From Tricharina praecox (Eukaryota), in the NCBI RefSeq assembly GCF_024521635.1, contig NW_026250419.1, positions 372,001-436,000 of the forward strand: a stretch of DNA of 64,000 bases, written 5' to 3'. Both the position numbers and the translations under genes were made by a program. Under the pieces are notes generated by a model. That model had not been told where the DNA came from and did no database searches. It saw nothing but the letters and a program-made list of their open reading frames with translations. Within the stretch, counting starts at the first letter, position 1. The number at the start of each line of letters is the position of its first letter. Shown in pieces: positions 6,666-60,100 of this stretch.

Positions 6666-6773
6666 TGACAGGAGTGGGACTTGAACCCACGCTCAGTTTC
6701 CCGAACCAGGAATCGGAACGATTGCATTAAGGTGACCTTAACCTGGCGCCATAACCAACTCGGCCATCCTGCC
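6666..6773 (-). tRNA. tRNA-Leu(AAG) with a 24-nt intron (6712..6735)
   Basis: Reverse complement: GGCAGGA-TGGCCGAGTTGGTTATGGCG-CCAGG-TT-AAG-G-[intron]-T-CCTGG-long variable arm-GTGGGTTCAAGTCCCAC-TCCTGTCA. The acceptor stem, A/B boxes and canonical 37/38 intron position are present. The intron carries CCTTAA, complementary to the anticodon. An oligo(T) terminator lies downstream. Confidence 0.95.
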
Positions 6774-48088: not shown

Positions 48089-49178
48089 TGGGCGATGATG
48101 GGCGATGGGGGGGAGGGGGGATGATGCCGCCCCGCCATGTCATGTAGGAAGCGTGGGGGCGGGGGCGGTTTTGACAGGCAGGGATGGCTGGGAAGAGGGA
48201 TTGGCGAGGCGCACTTTTTTGTCATCTAATGTCTTCCTTTTTTTCTTTCATTGTGGTGGTGTTTGTTTCTGCTTGTTCCATCGTTCGTTTTTTCTTCTTC
48301 TTTCCCGACGAGCTTCATCTACCATTGTAACAAAATATACGGATTGAGGGTGGTGACCATGGAACCTCGGCCGATTGGGTGGGAGGGTGGGGGGGGGGGG
48401 ACCGTTGGTACTCTACATATGATTCATCATTCACCCAGCGTCGTCCCATGCCGCATAACTAACAGGCTATGGGCTCGTCATAGGCTCATATGTAGTAGGC
48501 ACGGATTGTCCATCGAGTTACTGGTAGATTGCTACTGCACTCCGGAGCACTCTGCCTCTACATGGCCAGCCTAATATGCCCAATGCCGGCAGGAGGATTT
48601 GCCTTATCGAGACGAAGGCAGGCTGGCTGGGAAGACGGGGAAAACGTCGGGTACCTATCACCGTGGTCACTACCTACTTGGCCGGACGGGTTTTCCATGG
48701 GTTGATGGGCACAAAGGACTTGCTTACGTACATACAGAAGAAGAACTAGAGTTATGTACAAAAGCATATCGCCACTCACACACAAAGCACTCGCACTCAC
48801 ACTCACACCGGACCCAACAGAACAGAACAGAACACCATCGTTGATTCACGTTTTCCATAAACCAAGCCAGAGTATATATACCCAAGCATTTATCCGTATA
48901 GGTGGAACGAGACATCAAGGAATAGAAGAAGAAACAGAAGTAAGGACCCGACCCAACATAGCCCCAATCATCGCAGAACATACTACCTAACCACATCTTA
49001 TAGTTAGCATAAAGCATCCACCAAATTCCTTCCAGATTCCGACAGATCACCAAAGCGCGACGAGGGGGTTGATTACCTACATATGTAGTTATCCTGATCG
49101 TCCAAAATTTGCTCGTCGTCGTCTTCGCCGCCGTTGTTACTCTTCTCCCCACCGCTCCAAGCAGCACGGAACGACCCC

Positions 49179-51092
49179 TTACCACTCCTTGCTAGGGAGC
49201 ACCAGGTAGCCTTGCTTCCATCTAGCGTGTGACACTTGGTGATCTGGGCCGTAGCCGGACTGGATATTCTCGATATAGCTCAGTGGGTGTCTGGAGTTCT
49301 TAGCCTTGCGGGCCTCCATGATCTCCATCCTCTGGATGAGCGTCATAGGGCGTCCGGCACTCTCGGAGCTCTCGCCCTTGCGGGCCATGCTCCTCTCGGT
49401 CTTGCTCCTGTTCCCGGCCTGACGGGCGTCAATAGTCTCGAGCAGGGTCATTTGACGCCTGTAGCCTCCGGGCTGGCAGGCCATACTACCCTCTGACCTG
49501 GCGGACATGCTCTGGTCGGGCTTGGTCTCCATGAAGTGCCTGTTGGAACCGCCAACGGAGCCAGCCACATTCGGGATCCTTGGGGACATCGTGCTCTCGT
49601 CGGGCTTGGGATTGGCGGCCATGTCTCTCTCGGCCTGGCGAGCCGCGATGACCTCGATTAGGGTGAGCGGGCGCCTGGTACTCTCAGCCGTGCGACCCAT
49701 GCTGCGCTGGACGTGCTGGCGGCCCCTGGAGCTCTCGGTGCTCTCGCCGTGCGTGGTAGCAGAACCACCCGAGACAACCACGGCCGGAATCCTACCACCG
49801 CCGCTGGTAGGATTTCCGGCGTGGGTTTGCCACGGGATGGGTAACTTACCACCAGTAGCACCAGCACCAGCACCAGCAGCAGAAGCAGCACCAGCAACAA
49901 CACGACCGAAAGTACCCGCAGCACCAGCACCAGCACCAGCACCAGCAACACCAGCTCCACCAACTGCACCGACAGCACCAGCACCGACAGCACCAGCAGA
50001 GCCAGCAGAGCCAGCAGAGCCAGCAGAGCCAGCAGAGCCAGCAGAGCCAGCTCCAGCAGCTCCAGCAGCTCCAGCACCAGCTCCGGCAGCACGACCACGA
50101 CCAAAGGTACCAGCAGAGCCAGCACCAGCACCAGCACCAGCACCAGGACGACGAACATCACGGGCGGCGGCACGAGCAGCGGCAGCCCGAGCAACATCCG
50201 CACTCGCAACAGCACCGCGAGTGAGGGCCTTTGCTGGCGCCTTGACTGCTCCGATCGGAAACTGTCTGGCAACCCGCAAATTACCACCGGGACCACCAGC
50301 ACCGCCACGAGAAACCTCCGACTTCGACTTCTAGTCCGAAGTCTGGGAGTGAATAACCTGCTGGTGGCTAGTTGGGTTTGTGTTGGTGTTGACGGCGTTG
50401 GTAACAGATGCCAACGGCTTGTTAGAAATGCCGACCGATCCAACCGCAGCCGGAATCCTGCTATCGCTGCTGCCGCTGTCATTGCTGTTGCCGTTGCCGC
50501 CGGAACCCCTGCCACGGTAACGAGACGGGACTTGAAACTTACCACCAGAACCACCACTAGCCCCAGCGGCAACACCAGCACCAGCAGCAACACCACCACG
50601 AATTGGGGTCATCTTGAGCGTCTTGACAGATCCGGTCGGGTTCCACGTCGGAAACAGCAACTGCCCAGCCCCGCCAGCACCACCATCAACCGCACCGACC
50701 GGGTGTGACCAGCGCTGCGGCATGGTCTCCTCGGTCGGCTCGGCGATATGTGTACCGTCTGGTAGTGTCAGTACGATCCTTGGGATCGAGATTGAGTTCA
50801 CCTTCGCCGGCTTCTGGGCTTGGTGGAGGAGGAGATGCTGGAGCTGGTGGAACTTCTTCAGTATCTGCGAGCGGATACCTTGCTGGTGTGGGGCGCGCGG
50901 CTGCAGATGTGGGTGGACGTTTTGGCTGTTCGCTCCGTCCTGAATACGGTATTCCATGTGTTGCTGGGGTGTGGGGCGGTCGGCGAGGGATGGGAGTGGG
51001 GAGAGCTCGAGGGGCGAGGAGAGCTCGAGGTGCGGCGAGGAGGAGGAGTCGTGGGGAAGGAGGGACTTAAAGATGTTGGCGATACAACTCAT
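49179..51092 (-). CDS. Repeat-family disordered protein, copy A: 638-codon frame with one internal TAG (50331..50333); recoded gene or young pseudogene
   Basis: ORFs 50331..51092 and 49179..50279 are in the same frame and separated only by the TAG plus 17 sense codons. The RIPAxVGSVG motif occurs on both sides of the stop. Paralogue C also carries the N- and C-terminal modules in one frame. Confidence 0.65.
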
Positions 51093-51363
51093 CTTTGCTT
51101 GCGTACGTATTCAACGGTTGGGTTGGGTCTGGTAATAGTGGTGTTGGGTGCCAATATAGGTGTGAGTGCGGATTTTGGCGGTGGTTTAAGGTGGTGATAT
51201 GCCGATAGTTGCCGACTTATGGTGGTGGTGGAGTAAAGAGGAAAGAAAGGAAGGAAGGAATGTGGTGAACACGAGATTATATTGAGCGTCACGCCGAGTG
51301 TTTGGAGTTTGTCGTTGTAGGATTCGTAGGATTCGTGGGAAGTCGTTGGTGGGGTTGTGACGC

Positions 51364-51464
51364 CCATGGAAGAGTCGTGGACCGTGAAGAGTAGCCATGG
51401 TAGAGTCGTGGACCGTGAAGGAGTCGTGGACCGTGAAGTAGCCATGGCAGAGTCGTGAACCGTG
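51364..51464. repeat. Short tandem array, GAGTCGTGGACCGTGAA-type core x4 with interspersed CCATGG
   Basis: Three exact copies and one variant (GAGTCGTGAACCGTG), about 270-370 bp upstream of the copy A ATG. Confidence 0.85.
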
Positions 51465-51737
51465 TCCGAGGCGAGATGGAGTCGTTGGTGATAATTAAGT
51501 CGAGGACCGCAAAGTGGGCCATGGTAGTGCTCAACCGTGTCCCGAGTAACGGACGGTTCAACACGGCAGCGAGAACGGAAACACTGGAAGGAAAACATTT
51601 CTGGCCCGACTTCGTACCAAAATGAAGATCGTAGATAGGTAGAAGACAAAATTGATTGAACCAAGGAGAAAATTGAGAAATCGCAATCTAAGCATCGCTA
51701 TCGTATCCGGTATTTCGTATCCCATATCGCAGCTCTT

Positions 51738-52746
51738 CTACCGCGCCATCACCCTCTCTCTATTCCTATCCCTGACCCTCTCCTCCTCGTCCCTCTCGTT
51801 CTCCTCGTCCCTCTCGTTCTCCTCGGCCCAAGGCGAGTGACCCACCATCAACGGCGTGCGCTCACTCGCCCTGTGGCCATTCCGTGGCTCACGGGGGATA
51901 TGCTCCTCCTCGTCCAAGGACTCATCATCCGCCTCCTCCTCCTCGACGCGGCCAGCCTCCGATATCCTAGCGCGGCTCGCCGACTTGGCCGCGCGCGCGA
52001 GTTCCTCGGTGTGACGTTGAATAGCGATCAACGCGACGACCTATCATTATTCTCCGTCAATACCCGACTCCCCGAGTACACAAGTCTTGAATGCCTGCGA
52101 CCAACCTTAAAAACCGCAAGCAGCGCAAAAATCGCAAACAGCATCTCACCAGTGCTAGCGCCCGCCTGCATCCACGGGACGGAGCACGCCTTTGTCCTTC
52201 CGGTCGCATCACTGCACGAGGTGACATTCCTCGGCGGGAACGGATATGCCATGTGGGTGACGGTGCGGTAACCGCAGCAGCTGAGATTATCCTGGATGCC
52301 GCGGATGGTCTCGCCCTCCTTCGCGCGGAACAGCTCGTTCCACCGCCGCTCGAAGCGGCACGACGACAGCGGCGTCGCGAACAGCATCGACGACAGCGTC
52401 AGCACGATGGTCTCGACGAACAGCAGCAGCACGAGAGGGAGCGTGGTGACCATCTTCGTCACCGCTGTAGGCACCGCGTGCAGGAGCGCGTGCCCGAAAA
52501 TTAGAAAGTTGAGCAGCGGCAGAACGATACCCAGCAGTGGCAACAACAGCGAGATGGGGAGCTGCAGCCGGACGCTGTTGTACATCGCCAAGATACCGAG
52601 AAAGAGGAGCAGGCCGTTGAGCTATGCTCACCATTAGCAAGTCGGCCAGTCGGTCAATCCCCGCCCGGGCGGGAGATAAATACCCCTCCCGCGATAATGA
52701 TCCACCATCTCTTATTCCGCGACAGTTGAATCCACAGGTCAGGCAT
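51738..52746 (-). CDS. Fungal tetraspanin, Tsp3-like (293 aa); exons 52746-52684, 52621-52106, 52040-51738
   Basis: Four hydrophobic segments. The large loop reads C.FERRWNELFRAKEGETIRGIQDNLSCCGYRT....AYPFP.....C.......AC.VPW. Long charged cytoplasmic tail. Two frame-consistent GT-AG introns. Confidence 0.8.
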
Positions 52747-54000
52747 CGTCAATGCCTTCTTATGGTGTGTGTAGTAGTTTGCAGCGAGGCTTTCCTACGG
52801 AGGAGGAGATGGAAGAGAGTTGAGGACGAAGCGAGGAAAAAAGCGGGGGGCCGAAACCACGGGCGGGCGGACGGGGGGATGCCATTTTTATGAGATTCTT
52901 GCGGTTGACCGGTCGTCCCCCATCATTGGTTAGAGGGCCAGAGTTCCTGCGTGGCTACGTGTTTGAGCGGCTGATAATTCCATGGGCCACAGCAATATAG
53001 AGTACCTAGAGTATGGTGCTCTGTGTGCATATGCATGAATGTCTTGGACTCTGTTGGATAACAACAATCATGCATGTCACTCGATTGAGCGAGAATCGGG
53101 CGGTCCGACAGATTTGTATATAGACCTGAGGCCCAGCGAGGGATATAGAGAGCTCTGAGAAAGGGATTGTTGCAGCGCCAGGCAAAAGCAGAGGCTGAGG
53201 GAAGCGAAGGTACTATCTACACCGAGCTCGTTACCAGGACTGCAGACAGACCCTGTACTCTTGATAGGCTGCACGAACCTAGAAGAAACCTAGCTCCCGG
53301 ATAACGGCTACTAATCAACTAGTGACTTCGAGATCAACTGGGATATGATCGTATCATATTGAAGAAGAACATTATACTGCAGCCATGTCCTGCTTGCAAT
53401 CTTGCTATTTTGTGTATTAACCTATGTGACTAAGAAGAAATACAATTGCATTCTGGTTTCTATTTCAACCACATGGTGTACTTTTTTTTTGTTCGTAATG
53501 TACCCGTAGGTATTCGGCCAATAACATGTTTGTCCAAGAAGCGTGGGGGGTCTCAACAAGGCTGTCTGAGTGAGATGCGATGAATGACATGTCGTTGGTT
53601 AGGTGTGATTAGGGTTGCCGGCTAACTACGTTAGGTTATGTTAGGGAATGTCGACCAACTACGGGATGCCAAGACATCTCCCGCCCCACAACAACCACCT
53701 ACTTCTACCTGTGCCCTCTCTCTACTTTCAACACATCTTCTCTACTTACATCCAACACAACACTACTACATCCTCGATCTACCACGTCCTCCACATCAAA
53801 TCAGTACGCATATATGAGCGAACATATATCACGTTCACTAACCCCACTATGCGATGCCGGCAAAGCACCCATCATCGCCGGGTCGTTAGATTTAGCTATC
53901 GACCTTAGAAAAGCTCCCCCGGTGAAGGTTTGAAGCTTCCTATCCCTCAAATACCGCTTTCAAAGCTAACTGTGGATGGCAACACAGAATAGCGGAGCGG

Positions 54001-54627
54001 ATGGAAATGTGTGAGCCGAAGAGGGAATTATTTCCCTCGGCTCGGGCCCGAAAATCGGGCCCATGTTGGCGGGGCGCCTGTGGGCGTGCCCGCCGACGGG
54101 GGAGACAACGCCGCTGCGCAGGTCGCAGCGGGGGGTGTCCTCCCAGAACACACTCGCTCGCGGTGCTGCTGCTCGTGCTGCAGCTGCTGGTGCTGGTGGT
54201 TCTGGTGGTAAGTCGTAAGTCCCGTCGCGTTACCGTGGCAGAGGTTCCGGCGGCAACGGCAACCACAGCGGCAGCAGCGATAGCAGGATTCAGGCAGTGA
54301 TTGGCCCGGTTGGTTCTTCCAGCAAGCCGATGTCATCCGTCACCAACGCCGTCAACACCAACGCAACCAGCCACCAACAGGGTATTCACCCCCAGGCTTC
54401 AGGCTAGAAGTCGAAGTCGGGAGATGAAGGTGGAGGTGGGCTCGATCCCGATCCCGAGAATCGTGCTCACCACACCAAACGGAGCTAACATGGGCGAGCC
54501 AACTGAGGAGCACACGCCGCGGCGGAAGTCACACTCGGTCGGAGCGGTCGCCCATAGTGATAATTTGCAGGTTCTCGGGAAGCATTCGGCCGGCGCAGTC
54601 AAGGCCAAGGAAATGACGCTTTCTTGA
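54001..54627 (+). pseudogene. Repeat-family copy B: rearranged fragment with stops and a frame change
   Basis: Homologous to copy A (GGSGGK.*VPSRYRGRGSGGNG...HQQGIHPQASG*KSKS), with TAA at 54216 where A has CAA and the same TAG at 54405. The IPRIVLT module follows in a different frame. Confidence 0.7.
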
Positions 54628-54877
54628 GAAGATGGAAACATTTCCATCATTTCGGTCCGAGGACCGAGCTCCCGACACCCAACGGGATCGACAAGGAAGA
54701 TGCCAACAACGGACAACTGTCCCTTGTTTTCCGCCGCCAGCACCAGCGCTGGCGGCCAGGATCCTCTGCAAGTCTGCAACAACCGGAATATATCAACACC
54801 AATATTGCGACACCGATATCCACAACTATTATACCACCTCCCCCTATACCAACCGTCACATGGCTATGCAAGCCAAG

Positions 54878-56716
54878 ATGTGTTGCCTCACTGGCGCCCT
54901 CAAGTCCTTCCTCCTCCCCAACGAGCCCTCCTCGCCGTCTCTCGAGCTCTCCCCACTCCCCTCACTCGCCTAGCGCCCCATACCCCAGCAACACATGGAG
55001 TACCGTATGCATGGTGGAGCCAACACCGAAGACGCCAACCGCCTATTGTCCACCACCACCCACCATCTGGGTATCCGCTCCAAGATATTGAGCAAGCTTC
55101 ACAAGCTCCACCATCTCCTCCTCCATCAAGGCCAGAAGCCGAAGGTGAATTCGATCGCGATCCCAAGGATCGTACTAACCAGACTAGACGGCACGAACAT
55201 CGCCGAGCCGACTGAGGAGCCCATGCCGCAGCGCAGGTCACACCCGGTCGGTGCGGTCGATGCTTCCGAGAAGTCGCTTGCTCGCGATGGTGGTGCTAGT
55301 GGTGCTGGACAATTGCTGTTTCCGACGTGGCACCCGGCCGGAGCCGTCAAGGCTCCCGAGGAGACCAGCGCTCCCGAGGGGACCGACGCTTCCGAGGGCA
55401 CCAGCTCTCGTGGTGAAGATACCCGCGAGAAATTGTCTCGCGAAGATGGAAATATTTCCATCAGTTCGGTCCGAGGACCGAGCGCCCGACACCCAACGGG
55501 ACCCATAAAGAGGACTACAAGGGACGACTGTCCCTTGTTTTCCGCCGCCGCCGGTGCTGGAAACCAATCTTCTCTGCTATCTCACACCACACACCAGACG
55601 GGCATTCGCCCCGTGGTGTTGGTACATCCGTTCTTCTCACGCATCCGGATAAGGCCAATGGCCGCCTATCTGACGGTCATCATCTCATTCCGGGTGTGGG
55701 TACGCATGTTGCACTCTTGAGTGGGCTTGAAGTACAGTACGCCTTCGCCACTCGGCCGGCAGTCAAGTCCCTCACGATTCGGATCCTCGCTAGAGGTCCG
55801 AAGGCAGAAAAACTGGGAGCCGAAGAGGGAATTATTTCCCTCGGCTCGGGCCCGAAAATCGGGCCCAAGACCCCCGGCGGGGCGCCTGTGGGCGTGCCCG
55901 CCAACGGAGGGGGCCAGCCGGCTGCGCAGGTCGCGGCCGGCTGGAGCGGTGAAGGCGCTTCACAAGACGCTCGCTCATGGTGGTACTGGTGCTGCTGGAG
56001 CTGTTGGTCGTACTGGTTCTGCTAATTCTGCTGGAGCTGCTGCTGGTGAGTTGACCATCCCATGGCGATATCACCCCGGAAGTCTTACCAGCGGCGGTGG
56101 TAGGATTCCGGCTGTGGTTGGCCCGGTTGGTTCTGCTACCAGGCACGCCGAGCGCATCGAGAGCACCAGAGGCCGCCACCACGTCGAGCGCAGCATGGTC
56201 CGCCAGGCAGTGAGCTCCGGGCGCCCCCTTACGCTGGTCGATATCATCGCGGCTCGCCAGGCCGAGAGAGACATGGCCCTCAACATCAAGCCCGACGAGC
56301 GCAGCATGTCCCCAAGGATTCCAGCTGTGGTTGGCTCCGTTGGCGGTTCCAGCAGGCACTTCATGGCGACCAAGCCCGACAAGAGCATGTCCGCCAGGTC
56401 AGAGAGCAGCATGATCTGCCAGCCCGGAAGCTACATGCGTCCGATGACTCTGATCGAGACCATTGACGCCCGTCAGGCTGAGAACAGCAGCAAACCGAGT
56501 GGAGCATAGCCCGCAAGGGGCGAGAGCTCCGAGAGTGTCGGACATCCGATGACACTCATCCAGAGAATAGAGATCATGGAGGCTCGCAAAGCACAGAGCG
56601 CCAGACATCCTATGGCCCCTATCGGGAATATCGAGCCCGGCTATGGCTCAGATCACCAAGTGTCACACGCTAGATGGAAGCAAGGCCACCTGGCGCTCCC
56701 TGGCAAGGAGCGTTAG
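54878..56716 (+). pseudogene. Repeat-family copy C: full-length, single-frame paralogue of copy A with three internal stops (TAG 54971, TGA 55718, TAG 56507)
   Basis: Runs from MCCLTGALKSFLLP..LELSPLPSLA*RPIPQQHMEY to ...DHQVSHARWKQGHLALPGKER*, matching both termini of copy A in one reading frame. Confidence 0.7.
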
Positions 56717-56968
56717 GAAGACGACGAACGGACGATGGAAATATTTCCATCAGTTCGGTCCGAGGACCGAGCTCCCGACACCCAACGGGATCCATGCAGA
56801 TGGGGCGACCGCCCCTTGTTGTTCGCCGTCGCTGGTGCTGTCAACCAGGGTCCTCTGCTATCTCACACCACACACCAGGCGGGCATTCGCCCCCTGGTGT
56901 TGGAGCAGAGGAACTGGGAACCGTCGGAGTTGTGCTCGATCTGAGATCGACTTCACAACTCCGACGGG

Positions 56969-57185
56969 ACGCACGTGGACGAGTATGTCCCGCCGGGCCG
57001 AGAGCCCTAGGCGCCCGATGACCCTCATTGAGAGTATGGAGATGATGGAGGCCCAGAAGGCTGAGAACTTAAGGCATCCTATGACCCCTATCGGGAATAT
57101 CGAGTCCGGCAACGGCCGCGACCACCAAATTTCGCACGCTCGCTGGAAGCAAGCCCACCTAGCGCTCCCTGGCAAGGAGGGGTAA
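56969..57185 (+). pseudogene. Repeat-family copy D: duplicated C-terminal module
   Basis: SMSRRAESPRRPMTLIESMEMMEAQKAENLRHPMTPIGNIESGNGRDHQISHARWKQAHLALPGKEG* matches the ends of copies A and C. It is followed by a 3' flank similar to that of copy A. Confidence 0.7.
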
Positions 57186-60100
57186 GGAGGCGTTCCGTGC
57201 TGGACGACGAGCGGAAGACGGAGACTCGCAAGCTTTTTGTCGGTTGGGAGAACTCACTCACTAAAAATCTCGAAAAATCCGGTGGATGCTATATTCTGTA
57301 GTTAGGTATGTTCTGAGATGGGTTGTATGTTCTGCGATGGATTGAGTACTAAATTCTGCTTTAGTTCCTTCTTTCCACCTGTATCGATAATTGCTTGCTT
57401 GGAGTATCTCTACTTTAGCTTGGTTTATGAGAAACGGGAGATAACGTAACCCACTCGTCAAACAATTTGGTGGATGCTTTGTTCTGGTTATCTATGAGAT
57501 GTGGTTGGATATGTCGTATGCTCTGCGATGAATGCAATGAAGGAGTGATGTGGTTGAATAGCCGACATACGGCTGGCTAGAATTACATAAACTTTCTAGT
57601 ATACAAATATTGGTTGTAACATACGAACCTCTCACTGTTAATCAACTTCCGTTTTGACGTTTTGCTACTCGCTACCTACTTGTCATATGATGTCTTTTCA
57701 ACACTGTATTGTTCAGCGATTCTTCATGCAGCATGATTTGCGGTCCAGGTGGGCAAAGCCCCCGCCGTAGCGGAAACCGGATGTAGTGGAAGATTCTCGG
57801 GGGTGAATTTCAAAAGGAGACAGGGCAGCAAGTATAACGGCGCAATTGAGGAGTCTAGCAGACCGCGGGAAAGAGGTAAGAAGAAGAAGCCGAAGCAACG
57901 GCGGGGCATATGGAAGTACATATTCGAGCTGTCCGTGGAAGTAAAGTAGATATGCCCAACTAAATACATACTGCGCCGTCTCGGTGACACGAATATAGCA
58001 CAGCATAAATCGGTTTCACCGGAAGGCGGGAGTCGGACCGTGGCCGAACCGGGCCGGACGCGGACACGGACACGATGGGAGCGGAAAGGAGGGGGGGTCT
58101 GGGGAAGAAAGGCGGACGAAGTCGAAGGACTCCCGTCTCCTCTCCACGGCACTAGGTAGGCAGATGCTTGTCTTTCCCATATCCTCTGGCTTTGTGCGGA
58201 TGATCACGAAGATTCTCACGAAGATGCTTCCTCTTCGCCAGATCTATGGAGCCGGTCAACGAGCTGAGGAATCGCGAGGAGGAGGAGAAGTGCTGTTATG
58301 TACCGCATGTCAAGAAACTCGGTCATCCCAGCCCTCGTGCAAACGTATCCACAACGCAGCCATCGATATGCCGGTTTCTGTTGCGGCCGAGTCGGAGTGA
58401 GCAAGAGAGGGTTTATCTGCTTCCTTTCCTGGTATGTACATACTTATGTACTCTTGGTGAGACTTGGCGGTGTAGCCTGTAGGTAGTATCCTGCACTCGT
58501 GCGAGCTCTGACGGACGGAAGGAGTATGTAGATAGTTGCATCTGATTACCGTTCGTTCTGTGGGAGTGGAGTAGTTAGATTAAAGCTCGCTGCCTTGGGA
58601 TGACCATGCAGCTACGCCTCCCGCTGCTGACTGCTCACCGGGTCATGCTAATCGGGTTGGAACTGGGCTTCTCGGGAGTATGCTTATCCGAGTCGTTTGA
58701 TTACTATTCGCTCCCTAAATGAATACGAGCCCTACTTATGTATGTCCATATCCACACCCGCCAATGCAGAGGATATATGCCAACCTCCATCGCTAGCGAA
58801 ACAAAACAATCCACAACTGCCGTAGATCCGGAAGGAACCGGGAACGTATGTCGGTACGGAACGGTTCTCACAAGCCCTCACTCGTTCCACTACGCCCACC
58901 TCGCCAACCCCCCGGACGCGGCCCGAGTTCCCGGTTGTGAGGAGTATATTTAGCGTGGCCCGTACGATGAATGGACCGATGCCCTAGCTGCGCTTACATG
59001 TATGTATGTACTACATAGTGTAGGTAAGTACCTGGGCATGTGGTCCGCATGATATATATCGCTGCCGTCCCCCGCCAATTCTTGCTGTAGGAGTAGAGTA
59101 GGACGCTATCTGCCGGGGCTTGGTAGCTCGATAGCTCGATCAGCTCACCTTAAGTTTAATTCGGGCACGGGCCAATCTTTCCCCGCCGCCCGGTGAGCGG
59201 GAAAGAGTGAGAGAGAGAAATAAAATACCTGCTTTCATTCAACGTCGTAGCTGCTGTTATACTGATCGGTGTCAGCTATATACTCTAGAGGGAGCCTGTT
59301 GCAGCCTCGGCTTCGGCCTGCTTATCGGTGGGCAGGTAGCACACACACGCCCGGTCCTAAGCCTACACGCTGAGACCTATGTGTGCAAGGGCCGACCTCA
59401 ACCTATAGCCTGGGCGCTGCGCGCAAGGGCCGACCTTCTCTAGGCATCAACCTCATCAGTAGGGACGTTCTGCAGACTCCACGCACCACAACTACAACTA
59501 TCCAGGGGTATCAGATGGGGTTAGCTGGTTGGTGAAAAGTGGGAGGTTTTGCAAACCCCAAACTGCGAACTGGAACTACAACTACAACTACAAAACACGA
59601 AATCAAACTATGGAATGGTGGTGCGGCCGTGCCCATTGAGCGATACTGCAAGAGACAAGCGTTGGAGACAGTGACATGGTTTGTACCCTGTCTTTGACGC
59701 TTTCATCCAATCAGCGTGTTTGTTATGATCCAGATTAAATCGAGCTAACTCGCGCTACTCACGAACTTCAGTAGTTGTTGGTAGCGTCGCCGACCCATGT
59801 CCACACGATAGCTAGCCTGGTGACCTTCCTCCATTAAGTAGGACCCCTATCCGTTGCTGTGGTGATAGTTGTAGTTGTGGTGCGCGGAGGGGTCGCAGAA
59901 CGTCCCTAGTGTATGTAGCTTCGTCTACATCCGCGATGCCGAGCCCACGAGAGCAATGCTGCCTGAAGTACCGATGCGCACAGTAGGTATTAAACTGCAT
60001 GACCATTGCATATAGCCAGCCGAGCGGGCCGGTAAACGTTAGATTATGCACAGCTGAGTCAAGTACCAAGGTAGGCAATATATCTCCCCCTCGTATTGAC

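Follow-up and report, generated by a model that had tools for sequence, protein, structure and literature searches.

An open reading frame on the minus strand of the window (the whole 64,000-nt stretch of DNA analyzed), here called copy A, is split by one in-frame TAG that is a plausible further case of a known class of edited premature stops, a reading to which we give just under an even chance. The indirect, sequence-based features expected of a premature-stop-correction (PSC) site are present at copy A: a single UAG in an open frame, favorable flanks, an A in a hairpin loop, and a stop that is not spliced out. According to this proposal, copy A would be a functioning gene, specific to its lineage, which encodes a largely disordered repeat protein rich in Gly and Ala and whose frame is divided by a genomic TAG. 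Unedited mRNA would terminate at codon 254 and yield a 253-aa product. Tad2/Tad3 (ADAT), probably at the sexual stage, would deaminate the A of the UAG, offered unpaired and after U in a stable hairpin loop, and the resulting UIG would be decoded as UGG (Trp), giving a 637-aa protein. The TAG would then be a "restorative" site of the Fusarium graminearum and Neurospora kind. The editing event, its stage, the enzyme and the roles of both protein forms are what we infer from these features. A preliminary description of this DNA had proposed such an editing switch; motif, loop, transcription, lack of splicing and open frame speak for it, and against it stands the finding of no A>G in two RNA runs, as read from their consensus contigs.

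The foremost alternative is that there is no recoding. The TAG would be a plain stop and copy A would either make the 253-aa product only or be a young copy that is dying within a tandem family in decay, with a downstream frame that is a relic yet to gather stops and a hairpin that is a by-product of coding repeats. We regard this as only a little less probable than editing, and the evidence on both sides of it is given below.

The copy A reading frame

Copy A extends on the minus strand from an ATG at 51092 to a TAA at 49181-49179, a total of 638 codons with one internal stop, and the sequence when read back agreed with its earlier description as one frame with a single stop in the context GAC TAG AAG. 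A tetraspanin-like gene and a Ras-like gene border the locus. The upstream part (50334-51092) consists of the 253 codons from the ATG to the codon preceding the TAG. The TAG itself, codon 254, occupies 50331-50333, with the candidate edited A at 50332, and is followed by a downstream frame (49182-50330) of 383 codons without a stop. Sixty percent of the coding potential of copy A is beyond the TAG, which is the only lesion; there are no others in 637 codons. In the downstream frame, a repeat rich in Gly, Ala and Ser (about 50200-49848) is followed by a non-repetitive C-terminal part (49847-49182), in which R-P-[LM]-T-L-I-E-type repeats occur three times. RIPAxVG-type modules are found both before and after the TAG without a change of frame. 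The GC3 of the upstream part is 0.66, while that of the C-terminal part is 0.77, versus 0.55 at each of codon positions 1 and 2, and is equal to that of NOG1. The Gly/Ala repeat, which is open in several frames, has a GC3 of 0.25.

Neither half of the copy A protein was assigned to a family in Pfam. HMMER comparison of the read-through protein with 1.84 billion representatives returned two matches: P0002, which is the ORF at 54995-55720 of the window's own paralog C, and P0003, a low-complexity match. P0002 was also the only protein in the libraries found with the 253-aa part. A word-indexed search with the full-length protein gave no matches among proteins of near length or among shorter proteins, its candidates having probably been swamped by Gly/Ala words. 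Metagenome scans with the N-terminal and C-terminal parts found no relative, and the plain downstream ORF had no usable match in the ESM Atlas, such that no library searched held a homolog other than the window's own paralog. That both the 253-aa and the full-length protein are missing from the protein libraries in which a pseudogene ORF (P0002) is present favors a plain stop. The copy A protein is of the hypothetical, disordered kind typical of known PSC genes: in F. graminearum, whose PSC pseudogenes number 71, 43 code for hypothetical proteins and 50 have disordered regions (PMC10776026).

The TAG-bearing hairpin and candidate editing motif

The TAG lies in a hairpin at 50320-50343 (minus strand) whose best predicted fold (ViennaRNA) has 7 bp, a bulged G, a further 3 bp and a 3-nt loop, AGA. 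The 24 nt of copy A fold at -9.4 kcal/mol (z -2.7, with 2 of 200 shuffles as good), and the hairpin is retained with wider flanks, in a 101-nt fold (z -3.2). The 24-nt strings previously reported at 50343-50320 in copy A and at 54395-54418 in paralog fragment B match the sequence exactly. The structure drawn for them, an 8-bp stem with a 7-nt anticodon-like loop (CUAGAAG), corresponds to a suboptimal though accessible conformer of -5.1 kcal/mol in copy A and -3.6 kcal/mol in fragment B, so that in copy A it is less stable than the predicted ground state by 4.3 kcal/mol. The A of the UAG is unpaired in both conformers (probability of pairing 0.00) and is also in a hairpin loop in the 61-nt fold. 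With its 3-nt loop, the predicted ground state does not have the 7-nt loop and approximately 5-bp stem that characterize a mimic of the tRNA anticodon loop, and ARAGORN found no tRNA in the window.

The fragment B hairpin (54395-54418) has a predicted energy of -8.2 kcal/mol. As had been stated, its three differences from copy A preserve the fold, two changing an A-U pair to G.U and one falling at the bulge. These differences include no compensatory double change and therefore the hairpin of fragment B is not independent evidence for that of copy A. Similarly, 17 identical nucleotides in a row about the TAG are no surprise between sequences that are 81% identical.

Fungal A-to-I editing prefers C or U at -2, U at -1 and A or G at +1, +3 and +4, with +2 the least important position (PMC9600606). 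The flanks of the copy A site, CU-A-GAAG, fit five of the six published preferences (-2, -1, +1, +3 and +4), and the A at +2 is non-preferred. Edited sites are in hairpin loops in 62% of cases, as judged by 61-nt folds, and stabler hairpins are edited more (PMC9600606). The two strands of the window together contain 1215 TAGs. The motif, in the sense of the -2/+3/+4 pattern, is present at 108 of them; 36 of these also have the A in a loop and three a stable local hairpin as well. Copy A is one of these three, its two companions being one palindromic site counted on each strand. A TAG thus has a chance of approximately 0.25% of combining motif, loop and stability, which argues against a stop that is no more than a stop. 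On stability by itself the opposite case can be made, because a 24-nt energy of -9.4 kcal/mol or lower is reached at 14 of the 1215 TAGs, or about 1% of random TAGs, and an A in a hairpin loop with an energy of -8.2 kcal/mol or lower at 21. The hairpin may also have its origin in coding repeats, S-D-stop-K-S-K-S being encoded by GACTTCG...CGAAGTC with a tandem GAAGTC.

Paralogs and the age of the TAG

Three further copies, all on the plus strand, are present in the window. Fragment B (54164-54420) is 81% identical to positions 50586-50318 of copy A and has the TAG (54405-54407) in common with it, along with an extra in-frame TAA at 54216-54218; its frame is lost about four codons past the TAG, after KSKS. 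Fragment B had been presented as a paralog that conserves the hairpin; with the extra TAA and the loss of frame, it is a pseudogene fragment and not a gene. Paralog C (54878-56712) consists of an N-terminal segment (54880-55351, 76% identity) and a C-terminal segment (55978-56710, 82%) without the middle. Its frame is interrupted by a TAG at 54971-54973, by a TGA near 55721 and by a -1/+1 indel pair near 56500, and it carries inserted repeat elements. Fragment D (56998-57202) covers only the last ~61 codons, with 79.5% identity to copy A. The additional stops, frameshifts, deletions and insertions that they carry mark B, C and D plainly as pseudogene fragments, as would be expected if the whole family were decaying.

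Copy A and fragment B differ at 37 of 244 aligned nucleotides (dS 0.32). Differences are found 3, 5 and 10 nt upstream of the TAG, and recent gene conversion between the two copies is therefore unlikely. Judging from its occurrence in both sequences, the TAG is old. Because the TAG is common to fragment B at a dS of ~0.3, a copy A that had died would be expected to have gathered lesions as densely as its siblings, at about one per 100-150 codons; copy A has none in 637, which argues against its being a relic. RIP was considered as a source of the TAG or of the divergence among paralogs and was rejected, as transitions and transversions number 148 and 120, with no RIP signature (TpA/ApT 0.46-0.73 and (CpA+TpG)/(ApC+GpT) 1.20-1.73 in the copies).

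Selection on the downstream frame

The dN/dS comparison downstream of the TAG that had been proposed as a check gave an answer that points both ways. For the downstream frame of copy A, dN/dS is 0.62 versus C and 0.32 versus D, below the off-frame controls (0.82-1.33), while the upstream part has a value of 0.41 versus C, with off-frame controls of 0.69 and 2.14. The downstream frame thus looks coding by GC3 and dN/dS: a GC3 of 0.77 and an in-frame dN/dS below 1 persist beyond the TAG, contrary to the expectation for a plain stop, and lend modest support to selection on this frame. Changes could be polarized only in the last 61 codons, which A, C and D share, and there the ratio of synonymous to non-synonymous changes is 3:9 on the A branch, which is about neutral, as compared to 6:8 for C and 10:14 for D. 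The near-neutral A branch is in keeping with a frame that is no longer translated. So is the probability that 383 neutral codons would gather no new stop, which is 0.24 at K = 0.06, 0.09 at K = 0.10 and 0.03 at K = 0.15, so that the frame could be open by chance in 3-24% of cases, the upper value applying at modest divergence. In addition, indels of trinucleotide or hexanucleotide repeats preserve a frame without selection.

Transcription of the locus

RNA evidence came from the contigs of two sequencing runs, X1 and X2, which give the majority variant only, with minority variants hidden and the tissue not recorded. Neither run is on record as RNA, and we took both to be so because they contain spliced joints. 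Three others (X3-X5) had next to none of the words of the locus. The locus is transcribed, as spliced contigs of X1 and X2 have five GT..AG joints within 48600-57400. Contigs cover the upstream part of copy A down to 50543 and the downstream part at 49217-49646 and 49077-49238; they break in the repeat region, and thus a single continuous mRNA was not seen. Both runs have a 94-nt GT..AG intron at 48983-49076 (minus strand; GTAATC...CTAAC...TAG), about 100 nt downstream of the copy A TAA, which is probably a 3'-UTR intron of the copy A transcript. Neither run's contigs list a poly(A)-like loose end near the TAG.

The expectation of A-to-G changes was not borne out in these runs: neither X1 nor X2 has A>G at 50332 or 54406, as judged by their consensus contigs, which would show an edited base only as the majority variant and are of unrecorded tissue. 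The bin holding 50332 has a depth of 24-26, with no listed contig piece explicitly across that position, and the fragment B TAG is spanned colinearly by contigs at 54013-54680 (X1) and 54034-54680 (X2) with no other letters. The median editing level of published PSC sites in perithecia is 79% (PMC10776026), and late sexual tissue should therefore show G at the TAG. The lack of A>G in the two runs' consensus contigs counts in favor of a TAG that is simply read as a stop, as does the chance that the host lineage is one without mRNA editing, which is established in Sordariomycetes and Pyronema only. NOG1 scored 884 bits to chain 8i9r, only moderately above the 821 to 8esq and 800 to 3jct, which suggests that the host is not close to Sordariales.

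Two other features of the contigs were considered and set aside. A drop in expression past the TAG, from depths of 455 and 251 upstream of 50543 to 24-50 downstream, was rejected because the upstream contig includes a neighboring tetraspanin-like gene and there is one depth figure per contig, which makes the contrast unreadable. An AA>GG change at 50922/50921 in X2 was rejected as editing, having A at -1 and being at 100% of depth. X2 bears another organism label and has an 18-nt indel.

Other possible routes to the downstream protein

The two halves of copy A could instead be expressed separately, the 253-aa protein from the main mRNA and the C-terminal repeats from an internal start or a separate transcript. 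An in-frame Met is available at 49700, the first ATG past the TAG, the interruption of the RNA contigs in the repeat region would fit two transcripts, and automated annotation of CHE1 orthologs made a similar call (PMC11169179). However, a start at 49700 would drop ~210 of the 383 open codons, which are still open, and no joint, start cluster or loose end in X1 or X2 marks an internal transcript start. The CHE1 annotations, moreover, are shown in that study to result from a PSC site as artefacts (PMC11169179). We consider separate expression very improbable.

Readthrough of the UAG promoted by structure, giving a minor full-length product from unedited mRNA, would account for both the stable local structure at the stop and the frame that is open past it. 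Known readthrough stimulators lie 3' of the stop, however, and are not wrapped around it, and UAG-A-AG is not known to be a leaky context. This explanation appears slightly weaker still.

Least probable of all is a small unannotated intron that removes the TAG: it is true that the stop falls within 26 GT..AG intervals of 40-200 nt that would preserve the frame, and that the donors used at the locus are degenerate (GTAATC, GTTGGT, GTATTT, GTTTGA and GTATGT), so that weak donors such as GTTGGA and GTTGGC are not dismissible by sequence alone. However, a GTRDGY donor is missing from every one of the 26, their acceptors are not preceded by a CTRAY branch motif as those of the five real introns are, and all five of those introns were seen as joints in X1 and X2 within 48600-57400, with none across 50331-50333 or the fragment B TAG, so that the splicing check proposed earlier left the stop in place.

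Implications

If editing of copy A is true, it would add a further "pseudogene that is not one" of the PSC kind, its host being, on the evidence of NOG1, no close relative of the Sordariales models. It would also bear on whether restorative editing arose once or repeatedly in filamentous fungi, and an orphan gene now mis-annotated or unannotated would be recovered. The copy A hairpin also offers a clean 24-nt natural substrate for probing the requirements of ADAT-type editing. Should editing not be borne out, the locus is a useful caution: in a genome like this one, approximately one in 400 TAGs looks "editable" by motif and hairpin, and therefore sequence features alone cannot call PSC sites.

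A more specific reading joins several of these elements. The interaction of Ame1 with Tad3 arose in Sordariomycetes, and the host may be outside that class, with bare Tad2/Tad3 editing CUAGAAG as a near-copy of an A34 loop, by analogy with hyphal CHE1 editing, and with the TAG kept through duplication as a switch, of dosage or of stage, between the 253-aa product and a 637-aa protein of silk-like repeats. Taken as a whole this combination is unlikely, but if true it would place restorative UAG-to-UGG editing where Ame1-dependent machinery is not established.

Comparison with known systems

Stop-loss editing, as of DBF2 in F. graminearum, resembles the proposal for copy A in that UAG to UGG extends a protein (PMC13123824). 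It differs in that a complete gene is edited at its canonical stop and gains a short tail, whereas 60% of the coding potential of copy A is beyond the stop.

The A34 tRNA anticodon stem-loop is the natural substrate of Tad2/Tad3, and the 7-nt conformer of the copy A hairpin matches its U33 and A34 as loop positions 2 and 3. The CUAGAAG loop is, we presume, close to that of tRNA-Ser(AGA). Unlike the anticodon stem-loop, however, the copy A hairpin has a stem of 8-10 bp with a bulge, not 5 bp, and a ground-state loop of 3 nt; this is a resemblance and not membership.

CHE1 of F. graminearum is like copy A in that its TAG lies in a hairpin loop and the A follows a U, in its truncated N-terminal product without a known motif, and in being a site that confuses annotation (PMC11169179). 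The CHE1 PSC site is edited by ADAT in vegetative hyphae without sexual-stage cofactors (PMC11169179). CHE1 differs in having C2H2 zinc fingers downstream and a PSC site that is kept across Fusarium species (PMC11169179), while the downstream part of copy A has no known domain in Pfam.

Unlike the PSC sites of F. graminearum (PUK1, AMD1, FgAMA1 and FgRID, among 71 PSC pseudogenes), copy A is known from DNA and from consensus contigs without edited RNA, its siblings are dead, and its host, by NOG1, is not close to Sordariales. Like them, copy A has a single in-frame UAG in an ORF that is otherwise intact (PMC11156358, PMC9600606, PMC10776026). The PSC pseudogenes are reported to have originated by de novo birth or duplication (PMC10776026). 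Copy A likewise belongs to a duplicated family and encodes a hypothetical disordered protein, and, as at the F. graminearum sites, its TAG is not spliced out and its A follows U, has purines at +1, +3 and +4, and lies in a stable hairpin loop.

Structure and probable maintenance of the copy A reading frame

Copy A is a single minus-strand frame of 638 codons, as the preliminary description had it, running from an ATG at 51092 to a TAA at 49181-49179. Its sole internal stop is a TAG at 50333-50331 (codon 254, context GAC TAG AAG, with the A of the TAG at 50332). In the reading we favor, which we hold at just short of an even chance, copy A is a live orphan gene with a candidate premature-stop-correction (PSC) editing site: the unedited mRNA would give a protein of 253 aa, and deamination of the looped A after U by a tRNA-type adenosine deaminase (ADAT) would convert the stop to UIG, read as Trp, and give one of 637 aa.

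By eye, the predicted protein starts with an N-terminal part that contains an IPRIVLT...EPTEE...SHPVGAV module. A middle part, which ends at the TAG, and about 120 residues of (GAGAGS)-like Gly/Ala/Ser repeats in GCT/GGT codons (about 49848-50200, minus strand) follow, and in the C-terminal part R-P-[LM]-T-L-I-E-x-I-x-A-R is repeated three times. Modules of the GGK...RIPAxVG type lie in the same frame on both sides of the TAG, and no Pfam family was found on either half of the protein. The repeat tract is silk-like, (GAGAGS)n or (GA)n, with almost all of its codons GCT and GGT and a GC3 of 0.25 vs 0.66-0.77 in the gene's flanks; the RNA contigs break within it.

BLASTN of copy A against the window, three-frame translation and pairwise alignments identified plus-strand 53900-57300 as a patchwork of partial copies. 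Paralogue B (54164-54420) aligns with the middle part of copy A at 81% identity and has the TAG (54405-54407) and its hairpin in common with it, but carries an additional in-frame TAA at 54216-54218, and its frame shifts about four codons past the TAG into a second IPRIVLT module absent from copy A at that place. Paralogue C (54878-56712) has the N- and C-terminal parts without the middle part, and carries two stops, TAG (54971-54973) and TGA (near 55721), as well as paired -1/+1 indels around 56500. D (56998-57202) comprises only the last ~61 codons. RIP was rejected as the source of the divergence between copies (transitions to transversions 148:120, RIP indices negative).

Relative to copy A, the N-terminal part of C has indels of 18, 3, 3 and 27 nt, each a multiple of three, and its 157 codons hold a single in-frame TAG (54971-54973, plus strand; context C-U-[A]-G-C-G-C). 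This looks like a copy on which selection acted for a while, or else like a second candidate for an editable stop. Two short repeat elements flank the B and C fragments, one at 54620-54760, 55436-55549 and 56731-56792 (86-95% identical between copies) and the other at 54000-54110 and 55814-55910 (90% identical). They may belong to the duplicated unit or mark the termini of a small mobile element, and the 64-kb window has no further copies.

Besides the TAG, there are no lesions in the 637 codons of copy A, and its siblings have roughly one per 100-150 codons. In copy A's frame dN/dS was 0.41 for the N-terminal part (A-C) and 0.43 for the middle part (A-B), and beyond the TAG it was 0.62 (A-C) and 0.32 (A-D) for the C-terminal part; the same alignments in the other two frames gave 0.69-2.14. 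The GC3 of the C-terminal part, 0.77 vs 0.55 at positions 1 and 2, equals that of the window's NOG1 gene, and that of the N-terminal part is 0.66. When the 383 downstream codons were substituted at random, 24% of trials at K = 0.06, 9% at 0.10 and 3% at 0.15 kept the frame free of stops; the neutral share of the A lineage is ~0.08-0.15, as estimated from K ~0.15 and dS 0.24-0.43. We conclude that the downstream frame certainly coded for protein earlier in the history of the family, and that it is probably, though not demonstrably, still maintained in copy A.

The principal alternative, which we rate as a serious possibility somewhat below an even chance, is that no recoding occurs: the gene is truncated or dying, and its hairpin arose incidentally from the coding repeats (S-D-stop-K-S-K-S). 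The Gly/Ala repeat is open in several frames, and repeat indels would keep the frame anyway. Changes could be polarized only for the last 61 codons (A, C and D), where the A branch has three synonymous and nine non-synonymous changes (omega ~0.8), and the C and D branches have ratios of 6:8 and 10:14; these small, non-significant numbers give no sign of a special constraint on A.

The hairpin at the TAG

The 24-nt string reported at 50343-50320, GACUUCGGACUAGAAGUCGAAGUC, is exact. ViennaRNA folds it into a stem of 7 bp and 3 bp, interrupted by a bulged G, with a 3-nt AGA loop (MFE -9.4 kcal/mol; z -2.7, with 2 of 200 shuffles equally stable). The 8-bp stem and 7-nt CUAGAAG loop of the preliminary description are available as a conformer, but a suboptimal one (-5.1 kcal/mol). 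In the ensemble the A of the UAG is paired with P 0.00 and the preceding U with P 0.67. The hairpin persisted with 101 nt of context (z -3.2, 0 of 200 shuffles equally good) and was also retained in 61 nt, the length used in the literature.

The hairpin is unusual, at about the top 1% of window TAGs, yet not unique, because, of the 1215 TAG trinucleotides counted over both strands, 14 fold at least as stably (24-nt MFE ≤ -9.4) and 21 combine an A in the hairpin loop with an MFE of -8.2 or lower. The -2/+3/+4 pattern occurs at 108/1215, an A in a hairpin loop of the 61-nt fold at 375/1215 and both together at 36/1215. Motif, loop and stable local hairpin coincide at only three of the 1215: the copy A site and one palindromic CTAG at 55791, read on each strand (the TAG of B fell short of the -8.2 threshold through rounding).

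The preliminary description had stressed that the A and B hairpins differ in ways that keep the fold. There are indeed three differences, two A-U to G.U and one at the bulge, with the TAG in common; all lie in the 5' arm. B thus shows the age of the TAG and not selection on the fold, because there is no compensatory double change and a 17-nt identical run is expected about once per 244 nt at 81% identity.

RNA contigs across the locus

A search of sequencing runs yielded two, X1 (share 0.85) and X2 (share 0.81), whose contigs were aligned to 48600-57400. Both are RNA-like, since their contigs show five intron-type joints, 59-94 nt long and bounded by GT..AG (or CT..AC): 49076-48983, 52103-52039 and 52683-52622 on the minus strand, and about 53926-53985 (X1 only) and about 57302-57360 on the plus strand. 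One contig joins 49238-49077 to 48982-48600, and thus a minus-strand transcript passes the copy A stop codon; the 94-nt intron at 48983-49076, ~100 nt past that codon, is spliced in both runs. With the premature stop 1.15 kb upstream, a transcript of this kind would, if unedited, probably be subject to nonsense-mediated decay. That the C-terminal part is expressed separately is improbable, and translational readthrough of the TAG slightly more so.

No joint crosses the TAG of copy A or B in the contigs of X1 or X2. A cryptic intron there is the least probable explanation. In-frame GT..AG intervals that span the TAG number 26, none with a GTRDGY donor, although the donors in actual use at the locus are themselves degenerate. 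The contigs argue against both an intron and an assembly error at the TAG.

Across the 8.8 kb, the differences listed come from X2 alone, at full depth, and comprise two T>C changes (50921 and 50922) and a deletion of 18 nt at 51783. At 50921-50922 the window has T T and X2 has C C, which on the mRNA is A A to G G (CAA AAC to CAG GAC, N58D), the Asp being the residue of paralogue C. The X2 differences are probably strain polymorphisms, those at 50921/50922 because on the mRNA the base at -1 is A and not U. No difference was found at the B TAG, which is crossed by contigs 54013-54680 (X1) and 54034-54680 (X2), and none at 50332 is among those listed, where bin depth is 24-26 and no listed piece explicitly spans the site. 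The copy A site is a well-formed and cheaply testable candidate for editing, but A>G, the defining observation, was not seen at either TAG in these contigs. Both low-level and stage-specific editing are compatible with these data, because contigs keep the majority variant and the tissue of X1 and X2 is unspecified.

Genomic surroundings

The window has a eukaryotic, fungal character: its GC content is ~55%, its GT..AG introns are short (59-94 nt), and its genes include those for NOG1, a DnaJ protein, a Ras-family GTPase and a protein with a SacI domain (Fig4-like). Lineage-specific sequence abounds; of 30 long ORFs tested with Pfam, 28 lacked a family at E ≤ 0.001, and one of the two matches was weak and low-complexity. 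Directly upstream of copy A on the same strand is a tetraspanin-like gene (52746->51741) with four hydrophobic segments and a CCG motif, whose match to Pfam Tetraspanin PF00335 (E 0.0016) is below cut-off. The RNA contigs confirm its two introns, at 52622-52683 and about 52039-52103, and it lies on the deepest RNA contig of the locus (455 and 251). The 18-nt deletion of X2 is in-frame, inside this gene's acidic ENERDE repeat tail. A tRNA gene at 6666-6773 (minus strand; Rfam 46.9 bits, missed by ARAGORN in default mode) combines a long variable arm with an intron that follows the anticodon; this anticodon, AAG (tRNA-Leu), provides an A34 and thus a natural ADAT substrate.

Comparison with known editing systems

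Bit scores of the window's NOG1 are 884 with chain 8i9r, 821 with 8esq and 800 with 3jct, which we take to be from Chaetomium thermophilum, S. pombe and S. cerevisiae, respectively, and the protein's GTPase core matches 8esq at least as well as 8i9r. These scores suggest that the fungus is not close to Sordariales, a distance that lowers the prior for a Sordariomycete mechanism. The copy A candidate would be more interesting if its host lies outside Sordariomycetes.

Editing is described as common in Sordariomycetes, present in Pyronema and so far not found in Leotiomycetes, with the Ame1-Tad3 interaction of Sordariomycete origin (bioRxiv 10.1101/2023.10.18.562923; PMC5381528; PMC7306014), and as absent from S. 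pombe meiosis (PMC9723688). The editors are given as Tad2/Tad3 with stage-specific cofactors, and UAG-to-UGG editing as required by PUK1 and 70 other genes (PMC11156358).

According to PMC9600606, editing in F. graminearum favors a pyrimidine (C/U) at -2, U at -1, a purine (A/G) at +1, +3 and +4, and G at +2; 62% of the sites lie in predicted hairpin loops, and higher hairpin stability goes with more editing. Copy A, with C-U-[A]-G-A-A-G, has the preferred base at five of these six positions. The CHE1 PSC site, according to PMC11169179, likewise lies in a hairpin loop; it is conserved across the genus Fusarium, undergoes editing in hyphae and is regularly annotated wrongly. PMC10776026 describes 71 PSC pseudogenes with a median editing level of 79%, 43 encoding hypothetical proteins and 50 having disordered regions; their TAGs come mostly, not solely, from TGG, and the genes arose via de novo birth or duplication. 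The phenomenon is already well described, and the copy A site, if real, would add an orphan gene to the PSC class.
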